Shown here piece after piece: positions 2,592 to 62,437 of a stretch of 64,000 bases of DNA. Within the stretch, counting starts at the first letter, position 1. Every line of letters starts with the position of its first letter. The position numbers were made by a program, and so were the translations under genes. The notes under the pieces were generated by a model. It was not told the origin of the DNA, did no database searches, and was given only the letters and a program-made list of their open reading frames with translations. The DNA is from an archaeon. GTDB lineage: Archaea; Iainarchaeota; Iainarchaeia; Iainarchaeales; JAAZKV01. The stretch covers positions 64,491 through 128,490 of the forward strand of contig JBAZUY010000001.1 in assembly GCA_041661245.1 (NCBI GenBank), written 5' to 3'.

Positions 2592-5048
2592 TTAACTTGT
2601 TCTACAATCTGCAGTGTTAGTAATTCCTTCCCATGCAAGCGGAGGATATCCGATTCCCTCACAAATGTTGCTCCAATTCTTATCAGCACCAAATGTCCAA
2701 GCATCCGTTCCAGTGTATACTGCATGAGTAATTGGGAAGAAAGTACTATCAGTTGTTGAATAGAAAGAATTTGTGACTGGGTCTTGGCCAGTATCTCCAC
2801 CAATTAAACCCCCACTCACATAATAACCATCAACCATAATTGGTCCAGTAGCAAAACAATTTGTAACAGCACCATAACTTCTACCAACTAATCCCCCAAC
2901 TTCAATACTCCCACTTGAAGTACCAGTTGAATAGGAATTTAAAATTGGAGGAGAACCATAACCGTACTGTTGACCTGTAAGCCCGCCAATGTTATATGTT
3001 CCAGAAACACTCGCAGTAGAGTAAGTATTAGAAACTCTTCCAGATGTTTGAGCCCCAATTAACCCACCAACATGCCAAGACCCTGACAACCCAGTAACTA
3101 CCCCAGTACTGTAACAAGCATTAACAACACCATAACTATTAATTCCAATTAATGCACCAGTATCATTAATTCCAGTCACATTAGCATCTACGAGACCAAT
3201 ATTTTTTATTGTACCATATTCATTCACACCAAACAAACCAACAGTATTCTGAGCTCTGTTAATATACAATCCATATATTTTGTGCCCCCCACCATCAAAT
3301 GTTCCTCTAAAACCACTAACTGTTTGAAGAGGCCCAATTGGAGCAAACCCATTTCCATCATTCCAAAAAACTCCGCCCGCATGAGTCGCAGTATACATGT
3401 TTAAATCTGTTGTCAGCAAATAGCTTGCCTGAAGATTTAATTGAATGTCATTCATGTCAAGCACATCATCAATCAAATAAGGGGACAACGCAGTTCCGCT
3501 TCCTCCGCAAATATGCCCAAGCGGACAAGAATCACAAGCATCACCAACACCATCCGAATCAGTATCTTTTTGAGAAGTATTTGGAACAGATAAACAATTA
3601 TCACAAGCATCACCAACACCATCATTATCAGAATCCTCTTGGCCAACATTTGAGACCAAAGCGCAATTGTCTTTTGAATTATTCAAATCATCCAAATCAA
3701 TATCCTCGACAAAAACTGGAAGAGAAGAACCACTCCAACTCCAAGGAATTCCCCAAGCTTGTGAAGAAGTATAAACTGCATGAGATGGAGAATACAAAAC
3801 GCTCTCTGATCCAACGTATGTTCCAAGACCATTATCAAAATCAGTAAAATATGAATTTGTTATTGTACCAACAGGAGTAAGATTTGCCCCTAGTAATCCA
3901 CCATAAGTTGAATTCACTCTAAGCCGACTCGTTGAAAAAGAATTAATTATACTCCCGCTACTTAATCGACCACTAATTCCTCCTCCAGAAGAGCCAGCAT
4001 TTACATCCCCTCGTGAATAAGAATTAATTATTCTCCCAAATACTCCCCCACTAATTCCTCCCGCACTACCCATTCTTGCATTAACATCAACATCCGAATA
4101 ACAATTTAGAATTTCCCCAGATCGTTGCATTCCAACAATTCCACCAACATACTGCGCGCCAATAACTGACCCGCTAACAAAACAATTTTGGAGTTTACCA
4201 TAATTAATGCCCGCGATTGATCCCGCAGTAATTCCTGTAGAATTAACGTTTACATCAATTAGTAAAATATTTTTTATAATACTACTATACCCTGGAGAAC
4301 TAAATAACCCCCTACTATTCCCCGAACCAATTTTTAATCCCATAATTTTATTCCATCTACCATCGAGTCCCCCATTAAATTGATTTGTGCCTGTTCCAAT
4401 CGGCACAAATCCGGCCGCAGTATTAAATGGATCCACATCACAATTAATGTCATTCATAAGAACATAATACCCGTTCAAATCATTCCAAATATTATTCAAA
4501 TCATTACAAGTTTGAATTTTATAAATATTTGAATAAGAAGAATCAGCGAATCTTGCGGTTAAAGGAAGAACTGGATTTCGAGCATTATTGGAATCCGCAT
4601 TCAAAACACATTCTACATTAGTAGTATAGGAATATTTTTTTTCAACCCCATACTTTGAACGAGTATAAACAATTAATTCACATTGCTTTTTTTTACTAGG
4701 AGAATCACAAACACAACCTGTTATTCCATTTAAAGAAAATGTTTTTTGCTCAATTTCTCCAAAATAAATATTATCATAAGGAACTTGCTTTCCGCCAAGA
4801 CTTATTTTTTCTATGGTAAGTGAATCCCCCGTATTATTTCCAAGAACTATTATTGCATTTCCAGAAGCATCCAACACTGAATCAGAAATTGAAATCGAAG
4901 AAGTTTTGTCACCCAAAGTAGACATGTTTGTTGAAGTATCCCCCGTATTTGTATTAGAGGACATTATCCCAACCACTACAAGAGAAAGAACAACTACTAC
5001 CCCAATTATTACAAGATACTCAACTGTACCCTGCCCCCGATTAAACAT
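2592..5048 (-). CDS. Surface adhesin with archaeal class III (pilin-type) signal peptide, two GLUG-motif repeat arrays and two thrombospondin type 3 calcium-binding repeats
   Basis: N-terminus is [29 protein letters not shown]. There are many GG(L/I)(I/V/L)G repeats (GGIVG, GGLLG, GGLIG, GGLTG, GGLVG). [14 protein letters not shown] and [14 protein letters not shown] lie between the two arrays. Confidence 0.75.
3531..3623 (-). repeat. Two copies of a 24-nt identical segment, 69 nt apart, encoding the TSP3 core DGVGDACD
   Basis: atcacaagcatcaccaacaccatc occurs at 3531-3554 and again at 3600-3623. Confidence 0.85.
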
Positions 5049-5141
5049 ACTAAACTAATGTTTCCAGAATATAAAAATCTAATTTTTAGTTAATTTTTTA
5101 AGTAATTAACTTTTATATACTTGGAAAAACACCATAAAGTA

Positions 5142-6098
5142 ATGAAAAATAAAGCACAAGTATTCTCACTAGAACATACCCTCTTACAAGGACATTCTTC
5201 CATTCGGGGGCAAGGAGCAATAGAATATTTACTAATAATCGGCGCTGCAATACTTGTTGTAGCAATAGTTACCCTCGCAATTACCTCTTTACTTGGCCAA
5301 GGCCAAACTCAAACTACAAGCGGAGCAAATGAACAAGGCAGTGCGCTAGGAGGATTAACAAGTCTTGCTTACGTAACAGTGTCTGGAAGTAATTATCAAA
5401 AATCAGATCCGATTGTAACTTCACTTAAATCAATGTGGACACTTAATGATGCAAGTACAATTACTGATTCGGTTGGAGGAATAAATGGAACTTGTGGTAC
5501 TGCATGCCCAACATTAATTAACGGAATATCAGGAAATGCATTTCATTTCACAAGTGGAAACACTGCACCTGAGCAATATATACTAATAGATAATATTCCA
5601 GCACCTAACGAAGTAACATATTCTACATGGTTTAGAACTTCGAGTACTGGGTACATTTCATCATTTCGCACATATAATGACCCAATATCTTTAGATCCGG
5701 ATAATCCAAATCATTGGAGAGGAAGCTTAAGCATCGATGCTTCAAACTATTTATTCTGGGAGGTTGGCTCTTGGACAAGCGCAGAATGTCCTTCCAACTC
5801 CTTGCACCTGCTCAAATCAAAAGAACCGATTACATTTAATGAATGGCACATGGCAACACTCACAGTGGATTATAATCCATTCATTGGAAAATTTTATCTT
5901 GACGGGGAATTACAAGCTACCCACAATGACGGAAAAGCATGCAGCAATAATTCAAACTATTTGTGGTTAGGAAGAAGAAAAATACTCGGGCAAGGAACAC
6001 CAACAAATTTTATTGGAGATATTGATGATTTTGCAATTTGGGATAGACAACTTACAAGCGATGAAATAAAAACACTTTATACTAATGCTAAGAAATAA
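5142..6098 (+). CDS. Class III signal peptide protein fused to a LamG/concanavalin-A-like lectin domain
   Basis: SSIRG/QGAIEYLLIIGAAILVVAIVTLAI pilin-type signal. The C-terminal block WHMATLTVD...LYLDGEL...FIGDIDDFAIWDRQLTSDEI is typical of Laminin_G_3 domains. First ATG is at 5142 (the track ORF starts at TTG 5121). Confidence 0.75.
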   Translation: MKNKAQVFSLEHTLLQGHSSIRGQGAIEYLLIIGAAILVVAIVTLAITSLLGQGQTQTTSGANEQGSALGGLTSLAYVTVSGSNYQKSDPIVTSLKSMWTLNDASTITDSVGGINGTCGTACPTLINGISGNAFHFTSGNTAPEQYILIDNIPAPNEVTYSTWFRTSSTGYISSFRTYNDPISLDPDNPNHWRGSLSIDASNYLFWEVGSWTSAECPSNSLHLLKSKEPITFNEWHMATLTVDYNPFIGKFYLDGELQATHNDGKACSNNSNYLWLGRRKILGQGTPTNFIGDIDDFAIWDRQLTSDEIKTLYTNAKK

Positions 6099-62254: not shown

Positions 62255-62437
62255 ATGGAAGAAAGAGCACAAGGGGCAATTGAATACTTATTGTTAATCG
62301 CGGCAGCAGTAGTTGTTGTAGCAGTAGTAGTTGGAATGATGATTGGGCTATTGACAACAGGCGGAGACCAAGCAACAAATGCAGGAAGCGATTATAATGG
62401 ACAGCTTAATGATTTAAATAAATTAAAAAGACCATAA
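62255..62437 (+). CDS. Minimal archaeal pilin-like protein with class III signal peptide
   Basis: MEERA/QGAIEYLLLIAAAVVVVAVVVGMMIG followed by a short polar tail. Confidence 0.65.
   Translation: MEERAQGAIEYLLLIAAAVVVVAVVVGMMIGLLTTGGDQATNAGSDYNGQLNDLNKLKRP

Follow-up and report, generated by a model that had tools for sequence, protein, structure and literature searches.

Two divergently transcribed genes of a small, Iainarchaeota-like DPANN archaeon with a genome of 1.3 Mb, here called ORF A and ORF B, probably encode modular type IV pilins, in which a class III signal and its α1 helix would provide the handle and an adhesive module the cargo. Each predicted protein combines a pilin moiety that is homologous to a filament-forming pilin (in ORF A by fold, by profile and by identity to the stand-alone pilin of a pilus locus; in ORF B by the helix alone) with an independently folded C-terminal module (two GLUG β-helices plus thrombospondin type 3 repeats (TSP3) in ORF A; a LamG domain, residues 77-318, in ORF B). 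Both genes lie outside the pilus loci of the genome, in a neighborhood containing TFB, a KamA-like gene, a 135-aa ORF, DHQ synthase II and ADH synthase.

An earlier interpretation of the window (the whole stretch of 64,000 nucleotides, to which unprefixed coordinates refer), made without database searches and referred to below as the sequence-only reading, had described two divergent ORFs of 818 and 318 amino acids on either side of a 93-nt AT-rich spacer. It had assigned to the larger protein a class III signal and two GLUG arrays separated by two TSP3 repeats, with a 24-nt duplication, and to the smaller a class III signal and a LamG domain. Pfam searches and repeat analysis (ORF A), and PF04021, Laminin_G_3, AF2 and Foldseek (ORF B), confirmed this arrangement, the features of which are as follows:

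2592-5048, minus strand: ORF A, putative modular type IV pilin (class B), 818 aa (ORF, Pfam, AF2, Foldseek)
4959-5048, minus strand: ORF A residues 1-30, leader MFNRG (5 residues), predicted cleavage G5/Q6, hydrophobic α1 helix (PF04021, AF2, paralogues)
4599-4901, minus strand: ORF A residues ~50-150, predicted globular β-sandwich of a pilin, with a conserved NN[ST]G motif and a conserved Cys (AF2, Foldseek, profile)
3819-4535, minus strand: ORF A residues ~172-410, GLUG β-helix module 1 (Pfam Glug, AF2, Foldseek)
3525-3710, minus strand: ORF A residues ~447-507, two TSP3 repeats, putatively Ca-binding (Pfam TSP_3, NCBIfam)
2739-3491, minus strand: ORF A residues ~520-770, GLUG β-helix module 2 (Pfam Glug, AF2)
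5049-5141, no strand: divergent spacer, 93 nt, 18% GC, putative promoter region
5142-6098, plus strand: ORF B, putative modular pilin (class A), 318 aa from ATG (ORF, Pfam, AF2, Foldseek)
5142-5291, plus strand: ORF B residues 1-50, leader MKNKAQVFSLEHTLLQGHSSIRG (23 residues), predicted cleavage G23/Q24, helix QGAIEYLLIIGAAILVVAIV (PF04021, alignment A1)
5370-6095, plus strand: ORF B residues 77-318, LamG/concanavalin A-like jelly roll, putative lectin module (Laminin_G_3, AF2, Foldseek)

Architecture of the two proteins and their gene starts

ORF B consists, in order, of its leader, the α1 helix, a flexible Q/T/G-rich linker and the LamG jelly roll, and has no globular pilin domain. Its signal, reading ...SSIRG followed by QGAIEYLLIIGAAILVVAIV, retains E at +5 and scored 26.9 bits against the Pfam Class_IIIsignal model (PF04021, cut-off 23.7). 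The 20 residues of the helix segment are nearly all invariant among 21 homologues whose sequences otherwise share 30-67% identity (alignment A1), a degree of conservation that would not be expected of a cleaved Sec signal. The leader, at 23 residues, exceeds the usual length in archaeal class III signals; no RNA structure was found in the region encoding it (z = -0.3), although some paralogues differ in this respect. Many genes of the class III family carry tandem, GC-rich, hairpin-forming repeats of a pseudo-cleavage site that are restricted to their leader-coding regions.

The C-terminal domain of ORF B matched Laminin_G_3 (PF13385; 1.7e-17, 64.4 bits, cut-off 27.6), its AF2 model has a pLDDT of mostly 80-98, and Foldseek aligned it with concanavalin A-like lectin jelly rolls (probability 1.0) and with the carbohydrate-binding domain of the arabinanase AbnA. 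Foldseek matches to the lectin-like subdomain of the receptor-binding domains of clostridial neurotoxins were set aside, as they probably reflect the generic concanavalin A-like fold (13-22% identity among the matches listed) and no other toxin parts are present.

In ORF A, the MFNRG leader and α1 helix precede a pilin β-sandwich, the first GLUG β-helix, the two TSP3 repeats and the second GLUG β-helix. Counted from the predicted cleavage site, Q occupies position +1 and E position +5 of the signal, and conservation of the N-terminus extends to 17 paralogues (alignment A3). Its PF04021 score is borderline: 22.1 bits for the whole protein, just under the cut-off of 23.7, and 27.5 bits in a six-frame scan of the genome. 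The AF2 model places a helix at residues 9-30 and the strands of the β-sandwich at residues 52-148 (pLDDT about 85). Foldseek matched this domain to archaeal pilins from solved filaments (8q30 (Aap), 6nav, 6w8x and 8fk7), and a profile of the domain, independent of the structure search, had 8q30_A as its best match (E 0.008); Pfam assigned the class B pilin β-domain to no family except for weak matches to Pilin_N and Arch_flagellin. As modelled, ORF A thus holds a complete, Aap-like archaeal pilin (helix plus β-sandwich) N-terminal to its two β-helices.

The GLUG modules were detected by Pfam Glug (PF07581; 3.4e-16, 58.9 bits, cut-off 20.5) in three stretches and modelled with a pLDDT above 90, and Foldseek matched the first of them to the IgA1 protease β-helix 7uvk (1.3e-5). 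The two modules are 37% identical over 251 aa (E 5e-24) and, judged by their sequences, represent an old internal duplication. Between them, Pfam TSP_3 (PF02412; 1.6e-7, 31.3 bits, cut-off 25) matched two stretches in which the Ca-binding motif DxDxDGxxDxCDxC is readable, and NCBIfam reports an MtsC-type TSP3 stretch in the same region, which has a low pLDDT in the AF2 model built without Ca. The underlying DNA is a tandem repeat of a 69-nt unit (copies at 3525-3593 and 3594-3662, 71% identical), both copies of which contain the exact 24-nt repeat ATCACAAGCATCACCAACACCATC, encoding DGVGDACD in each TSP3 repeat.

Within the spacer, a TATA-like box at 5070-5078, the centre of which lies 26 nt from the ORF A ATG, was assigned to ORF A, and a second at about 5111-5119, about 27 nt from the ATG at 5142, to ORF B. 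These assignments follow the usual archaeal TATA-to-start spacing, and both spacings predict leaderless mRNAs. Two other start codons were considered and rejected. Counted from the TTG at 5121, ORF B would comprise 325 aa; however, this codon abuts the TATA-like box at 5111-5119, and orthologues align from the ATG. For ORF A, the public gene call (P0050, 790 aa) begins at M29 and omits the signal; however, the protein sequence encoded by the 28 codons preceding M29 is conserved in the 17 paralogues. Nor did the divergent pair prove to be a conserved unit: the pairing is retained in the closest relative and absent from the next, where TFB lies directly upstream of the LamG pilin.

Class III signals and the pilus machinery of the host genome

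That both N-termini are class III (prepilin-type) signals, as the sequence-only reading had it, was borne out by the PF04021 matches, with ORF A remaining the borderline case. In both, the charged leader terminates with [KR]-[GA], and the predicted cleavage site is followed by Q at +1, E at +5 and a hydrophobic run of about 20 residues; leader end, Q+1 and E+5 are invariant in alignments A1 and A3, and neither protein sequence contains a second membrane anchor. The same reading depended on a prepilin peptidase and pilus machinery being encoded elsewhere in the genome, and these were found: two Peptidase_A24 genes (candidates C1:517354-518469, which also has an archaeal Arc_PepC domain, and C1:579408-580208), six T2SSE ATPases scoring over the cut-off, and four pilus loci, each comprising an ATPase and two T2SSF platform genes (eight T2SSF domains in total).

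Two of these loci encode small pilins related to ORF A and ORF B. Locus 1 encodes an ATPase, two platform proteins and several small Q(+1) pilins lacking a globular domain, with an A24 peptidase gene alongside; in this operon lies the gene of an 88-aa pilin (C1:516372-516638) that shares 81% identity with the ORF B helix over 42 aa. In locus 2, an ATPase and two platform genes are followed by a stand-alone pilin at C1:258906 (148 aa mature) that matches the ORF A pilin domain with 41% identity over 82 aa, and this gene order (ATPase-platform-platform-pilin) is kept in two further genomes of the genus. As ORF A and ORF B have two distinct invariant helices, which match the stand-alone pilins of separate loci (Epd/Tad-like in locus 1, Aap-like in locus 2), the two proteins are, on this sequence evidence, probably clients of two different pilus machines.

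The proposal that ORF A and ORF B are pilus-displayed adhesins is therefore largely supported by signals, domains, machinery and homology to operon-encoded pilins, from which we infer display itself; the two proteins may occupy the tip or the shaft of the pilus or remain in the membrane, and may have a role in host attachment. In the mechanism that we infer for cleavage, filament incorporation, position in the filament and the ligands of the modules, the precursor would enter the membrane via its hydrophobic helix of about 21 residues, and an archaeal A24 prepilin peptidase would cleave after [KR]-G, leaving Gln at +1. The machine, an ATPase with two TadC-like platform proteins, would then extract the helix from the membrane into a type IV filament, the bulk of which would be the small stand-alone pilin bearing the same helix. 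The LamG lectin of ORF B, or the two Ca-linked GLUG β-helices of ORF A, would thereby be displayed extracellularly to bind glycans or surfaces.

An expanded family and its possible modes of display

ORF A and ORF B are two of at least 35 class III genes in the host genome (about 20-40 such genes; a family of about 35-40), of which about 24 are large and which together occupy about 4% of the genome. The host genome has 21 copies of the ORF A-type pilin domain, compared with 1-25 in genomes of the same genus and 0-1 in other families of the order. The class III family is thus expanded in the host lineage, and being paired does not set ORF A and ORF B apart from the rest.

A single genome with about 24 large cargo pilins is difficult to reconcile with display at pilus tips alone, and bulky cargo of 240-650 aa may block the packing of a pilin in the filament shaft. 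In Sulfolobus, class III-signal sugar-binding proteins are the substrates of the bindosome, for which display at the cell surface has been proposed (PMC3047682, PMC13705601). By analogy, ORF A and ORF B might be cleaved by the peptidase but remain on the cell surface, where, arranged in short pseudopili or in a coat anchored to the membrane, they would form an adhesive or scavenging layer instead of decorating long pili. The number of class III genes, in excess of what tip complexes alone would account for, fits this alternative, as do the location of most of them outside the pilus loci, as with bindosome substrates (PMC13705601), and the flexible linker in place of a globular pilin domain in ORF B. 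The two systems also share non-pilin domains on a conserved class III signal and helix, genes distant from the machinery, and many clients per machine. However, Pfam and NCBIfam detected no substrate-binding-protein domain in ORF A or ORF B, no ABC transporter is encoded beside them, and their cargo consists of lectin and β-helix adhesin modules; moreover, the filament-type pilin domain of ORF A is retained whole and is homologous to a pilus-operon pilin, and both proteins keep E at +5. We therefore consider bindosome-like display unlikely.

It is far less probable still that the N-termini are ordinary Sec signals or uncleaved signal-anchors, which would only target or anchor the proteins and would involve neither prepilin peptidase nor pilus machinery. 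In favour of this are a hydrophobic stretch that would suffice as a transmembrane anchor, the whole-protein PF04021 score of ORF A, which falls marginally short of the cut-off, and the public ORF A call, which does without the signal. Against it, homologues and paralogues invariably show the [KR]-G/Q...E(+5) pattern, small pilins encoded in operons with an A24 peptidase bear the same helix, and the long form of ORF A has both its conserved upstream codons and an appropriately spaced TATA-like box.

Modular pilins, the reading that we prefer, have precedents. In Streptococcus sanguinis, the modular pilins PilB (vWA) and PilC (concanavalin A-like lectin) have been described, and a tip location of PilABC has been modelled (PMC9934059, PMC8179133). 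ORF A and ORF B resemble PilB and PilC in their class III signal, short pilin moiety, grafted adhesive module and retained Glu5, and ORF B shares with PilC the combination of a minimal pilin moiety and a concanavalin A-like/LamG lectin fold. In contrast to PilB and PilC, they are archaeal (Q+1, PF04021-type signal) and without sequence homology to the streptococcal proteins, the cargo of ORF A is two GLUG β-helices joined by TSP3, and such genes number about 20-40 per genome rather than two, with ORF A and ORF B lying outside a pilus operon.

Among archaea, class III-signal binding proteins have been proposed to functionalise type IV filaments (PMC13705601). The type IV filament "system 1", exemplified by Methanococcus maripaludis Epd, has two platform genes, a dedicated class III signal peptidase and Q+1 pilins (PMC13705601, PMC3875500), and occurs in some Nanobdellati (DPANN) (PMC13705601). 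Locus 1 resembles it in gene content (ATPase, two platform genes, small Q(+1) pilins, adjacent A24 peptidase), whereas the genes for cargo pilins of the ORF B type lie at other sites in the host genome. Residues 6-150 of ORF A share the α1 plus β-sandwich fold of the adhesive pilins of Sulfolobus (Aap, 8q30) and S. islandicus LAL14/1 (6nav), with a weak but top-ranked profile similarity to Aap that includes a KN.G..S[IL]..T.I motif; unlike these pilins, which are from a distant phylum and about 17-19% identical, ORF A adds a C-terminal extension of 650 residues.

No close orthologues of ORF A were found, its best matches being bacterial GLUG proteins (26-43% identity over partial length). These surface proteins and the N-terminal β-helix of IgA1 protease (7uvk, 6xja) have the same β-helix fold; however, the bacterial GLUG proteins use Sec signals, T9SS sorting or TPS domains and have no pilin handle, and ORF A lacks the protease domain of IgA1 protease. 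Every GLUG ORF in the host genome carries an ORF A-type pilin domain.

Implications for DPANN archaea

DPANN archaea are believed to rely on contact between cells, and the molecules by which they attach are mostly unknown. ORF A and ORF B provide concrete adhesin candidates: a predicted lectin on one pilin handle and predicted Ca-linked β-helices on another. In a recent census, type IV filament systems were scarce in DPANN (PMC13705601); the host genome has four filament loci and devotes about 4% of its DNA to prepilin-signal proteins. Pilins bearing grafted adhesive modules are an established concept in bacteria and a proposed one in archaea. Points beyond the sequence-only reading are the whole pilin β-sandwich of ORF A, the two helices matching two loci, and the expanded family.

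A broader conjecture, which we regard as doubtful, is that in the host genus or family the pilin module would be a general surface-display scaffold, with at least 20 cargo pilins per ~1-Mb genome sorted by two invariant α1 helices to at least two filament machines, so that the cell would bear adhesive filaments decorated in varying combinations, or else a coat anchored by pilins; in the host genome, the leader repeats would perhaps modulate which members are made or processed. As a natural system, the host genome lends itself to the question of how many types of cargo one pilus machine can export.

Two divergent, probable modular pilins

The sequence-only reading had described ORF A and ORF B as a divergent pair of adhesin-like proteins with pilin-type signals, inferred to be displayed on pili or at their tips and, if the organism is an episymbiont, plausibly serving in host attachment. 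Every element that it described (the open reading frames with their coordinates, class III starts, domains and divergent layout) is present:

2592-5048, minus strand: ORF A, a class B modular pilin of 818 aa; start MFNRG up to the predicted cleavage site, then the class III helix
5049-5141: AT-rich spacer, 93 nt, 18% GC
5142-6098, plus strand: ORF B, a class A modular pilin of 318 aa from the ATG; leader MKNKAQVFSLEHTLLQGHSSIRG, then QGAIEYLLIIGAAILVVAIV

Pfam bore out the GLUG and TSP3 calls on ORF A (Glug, 3.4e-16; TSP_3, 1.6e-7, two stretches) and the LamG call on ORF B (Laminin_G_3, 1.7e-17). The class III (PF04021-type prepilin) signal scored 26.9 bits on ORF B; on ORF A it reached 22.1 bits, under the cut-off of 23.7, in the whole-protein scan and 27.5 bits in a six-frame genome scan. 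The TSP3 repeats are encoded by a 69-nt tandem unit (3525-3593 and 3594-3662), inside which lies the 24-nt exact duplication noticed earlier, and the GLUG modules of ORF A are 37% identical to each other over 251 aa.

Each ATG is preceded by a TATA-like box whose centre lies 26-27 nt away, a spacing usual for archaea, and this box-to-ATG distance predicts leaderless transcripts for both genes. At the closest relative locus (L018) a divergent class B gene is kept beside the LamG pilin, but at the next-closest (L019) the divergent pair is not kept, a 461-aa class B GLUG protein being encoded two genes off, which argues against the adjacency being a conserved unit.

Segments of the AF2 models of ORF A (36-sequence alignment, pLDDT 76.8) and ORF B (21-sequence alignment, pLDDT 78)
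ORF A, residues 9-30: helix
ORF A, residues 52-148: beta-sandwich
ORF A, residues 175-405: first beta-helix
ORF A, residues 416-506: TSP3 segment, low confidence
ORF A, residues 520-765: second beta-helix
ORF B, N-terminus: long helix
ORF B, residues 52-68: Q/T/G-rich linker, low confidence
ORF B, residues 77-318: jelly roll

Using Foldseek, we determined that the ORF A model matches the GLUG-containing beta-helix of IgA1 proteases (7uvk, 1.3e-5), while its first 150 residues match archaeal pilins of solved filaments (8q30 Aap, 6nav, 6w8x and 8fk7; target-normalised TM ~0.42). A sequence profile of the pilin domain (17 paralogues), independent of the Foldseek search, ranked the Aap pilin 8q30_A first among PDB entries (E 0.008). 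Together, these matches indicate that ORF A is a predicted whole archaeal pilin, extended at its C-terminus by 650 residues, a feature absent from the sequence-only reading. No close orthologue of ORF A was found; its cargo resembles bacterial GLUG proteins (26-43% identity). As the public gene call (P0050, 790 aa) starts at M29, it lacks half the pilin helix along with the whole class III signal, and automated annotation would overlook the pilin-type nature of ORF A.

Several GLUG-cargo pilins from different genomes share a cysteine-containing C-terminal motif, W.ICRGA.[LY]PWL[ST]WENRTC (L019:7230-7571, minus strand; C2_282423 in the same genome as ORF A; ORF A residues ~790-818, where it reads ...CRTS), perhaps a conserved element that caps the beta-helix module or forms a disulfide in it.

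The ORF B model is without a pilin globular domain, the lectin fold being joined straight onto the helix. Its Foldseek matches are concanavalin A-like/LamG jelly rolls (13-22% identity among the matches listed), including carbohydrate-binding domain 4 of the arabinanase AbnA, a pentraxin and the lectin-like subdomain in the binding domains of clostridial neurotoxins; we read these as generic fold similarity only. Orthologues of ORF B occur at 67, 57, 52 and 47% identity, and class III-plus-LamG proteins of ~300 aa form a wider family in DPANN metagenomes; both groups share an invariant helix. A 1627-base contig (CAIKVR010000234.1) binned as 'uncultured Bacteroidales bacterium' encodes an archaeal QGAIEYLLIIGA class A pilin helix, in a protein that shares 47% identity with ORF B over 97 residues; the contig probably comes from an archaeon and ended up in a bacterial MAG through mis-binning.

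Pilus machinery in the genome

The source organism belongs to the Iainarchaeota/Diapherotrites group of DPANN archaea; the window, which corresponds to C1:64491-128490, carries an archaeal marker, a TFB gene (1-900), and the relatives of ORF B include Candidatus Iainarchaeum and Candidatus Forterrea sequences. Its assembly comprises 1.31 Mb in five contigs (C1-C5) at 34% GC and is an estimated 86% complete. Nearly all of contig C4 (6712 bases), scanned in 45-nt windows, passes a threshold of 64% GC, against the genome mean of 34%; the contig is probably a mis-binned piece of another organism.

The earlier reading depended on a prepilin peptidase and pilus machinery being encoded in the genome. 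Both are, as we found two Peptidase_A24 proteins (one, C1:517354-518469, also with an archaeal Arc_PepC domain), six ATPases of the T2SSE family that pass the cut-off, and eight T2SSF platform domains (two genes at each of four loci):

C1:512386-522900 (pilus locus 1), C1:254080-259352 (pilus locus 2), C2:175275-178212 and C3:163618-168600: in each, a secretion ATPase with a pair of TadC-like platform genes
C1:531k and C3:41-44k: further ATPases
Window 62255-62437, plus strand: stand-alone class III pilin, 60 aa, MEERA before the predicted cleavage site, then QGAIEYLLLIAAAVVVVAVVVGMM...; PF04021 28.4 bits, without a globular domain

The 60-aa pilin sits between an Lrp/AsnC-like gene and aspartyl-tRNA synthetase, away from the pilus loci. 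This 1.3-Mb genome has four loci of an ATPase and two platform genes; a recent census calls type IV filament systems scarce among DPANN archaea (PMC13705601).

Pilus locus 1 holds genes for an ATPase, two platform proteins, three small Q(+1) pilins, an A24 peptidase and further class III proteins. Across the first 42 mature residues, ORF B and the 88-aa pilin of this locus share 81% identity. At pilus locus 2, where the order ATPase-platform-platform-pilin is kept in two other genomes of the genus, an 881-aa ATPase and two platform proteins accompany a pilin whose mature form has 148 aa; over 82 residues this pilin shares 41% identity with ORF A, the likeness running past the helix into the beta-domain. 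These likenesses suggest that the divergent pair joins one client each of the two systems.

The class III family and its leader repeats

Class III signal sites in this genome number 26 by Pfam scan and 35 by motif scan, with five more found by other means; ~24 of the proteins are large, and the set makes up ~4% of the genome. The class B pilin domain, present on all GLUG ORFs of this genome, has 21 copies here. Elsewhere its copy number is 1-25 in every one of 21 genomes of the same genus and 8-11 in three further genera of the family, against 0-1 in sixteen other families of the order. The cargos behind it vary (GLUG beta-helices, LamG, repeats with a beta-propeller-like look as judged by eye, and other repeats).

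In many class III paralogues, leaders of 14-42 residues are tandem degenerate copies of the cleavage-site region (e.g., ...RAQALASERGQGLSCASAQGLSWTSG directly before QGTIEYL). The 1-5 tandem units of 24-27 nt are in frame, GC-rich within a 34% GC genome and hairpin-forming, each encoding a degenerate site [AG]-Q-[GA]-L-S...:

C1:780099-780194 and C1:699170-699251: leader repeats
C2:126748-126803, C2:198956-199003 and C2:273168-273296: leader repeats
C3:190916-191016, C3:241-406 and C5:4284-4329: leader repeats

Exact or near-exact copies occur in this genome only directly upstream of class III Q+1 codons, and the two longest repeats fold at -50 kcal/mol (z-scores -3.1 and -2.8). The extended leader is absent from ORF A and has only a degenerate form in ORF B (window 5142-5210). 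Leaders in same-genus genomes are mostly short and AT-rich, with a few extended ones; one, MKNKAQGTIEELFRKNFGKKSIA before QGTIEYL, is a visibly duplicated site. Because the leader is predicted to be cleaved off, neutral build-up of in-frame duplications is the simplest explanation, although a regulatory or processing-control role is conceivable.

Proposed filament display and its alternatives

The best-supported reading, which we consider likely, is that ORF A and ORF B are cleaved by peptidase, extracted by a filament machine and show their cargo on filaments or their tip. An A24 peptidase would cut ahead of Q+1, the helix would be pulled from the membrane by the type IV filament machine, and the cargo would be shown along, or at the tip of, filaments made of the matching small pilin. 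Such display would parallel PilB and PilC, the modular pilins of the bacterium Streptococcus sanguinis (PMC9934059, PMC8179133), and fits a recent suggestion that, in archaea, binding proteins with class III signals functionalise type IV filaments (PMC13705601).

The sheer number of class III clients, and their location outside pilus loci, would also suit a bindosome-like or pseudopilus coat on the cell surface, the main rival, which we regard as rather improbable. An ordinary Sec signal or signal-anchor is very unlikely, fitting poorly with both the invariant cleavage motif and the homology with pilins of pilus operons.

Adhesive modules grafted onto pilins are a known arrangement; of moderate note here are the domain fusions, pilin-GLUG-TSP3-GLUG and helix-LamG, together with the lineage-specific expansion.
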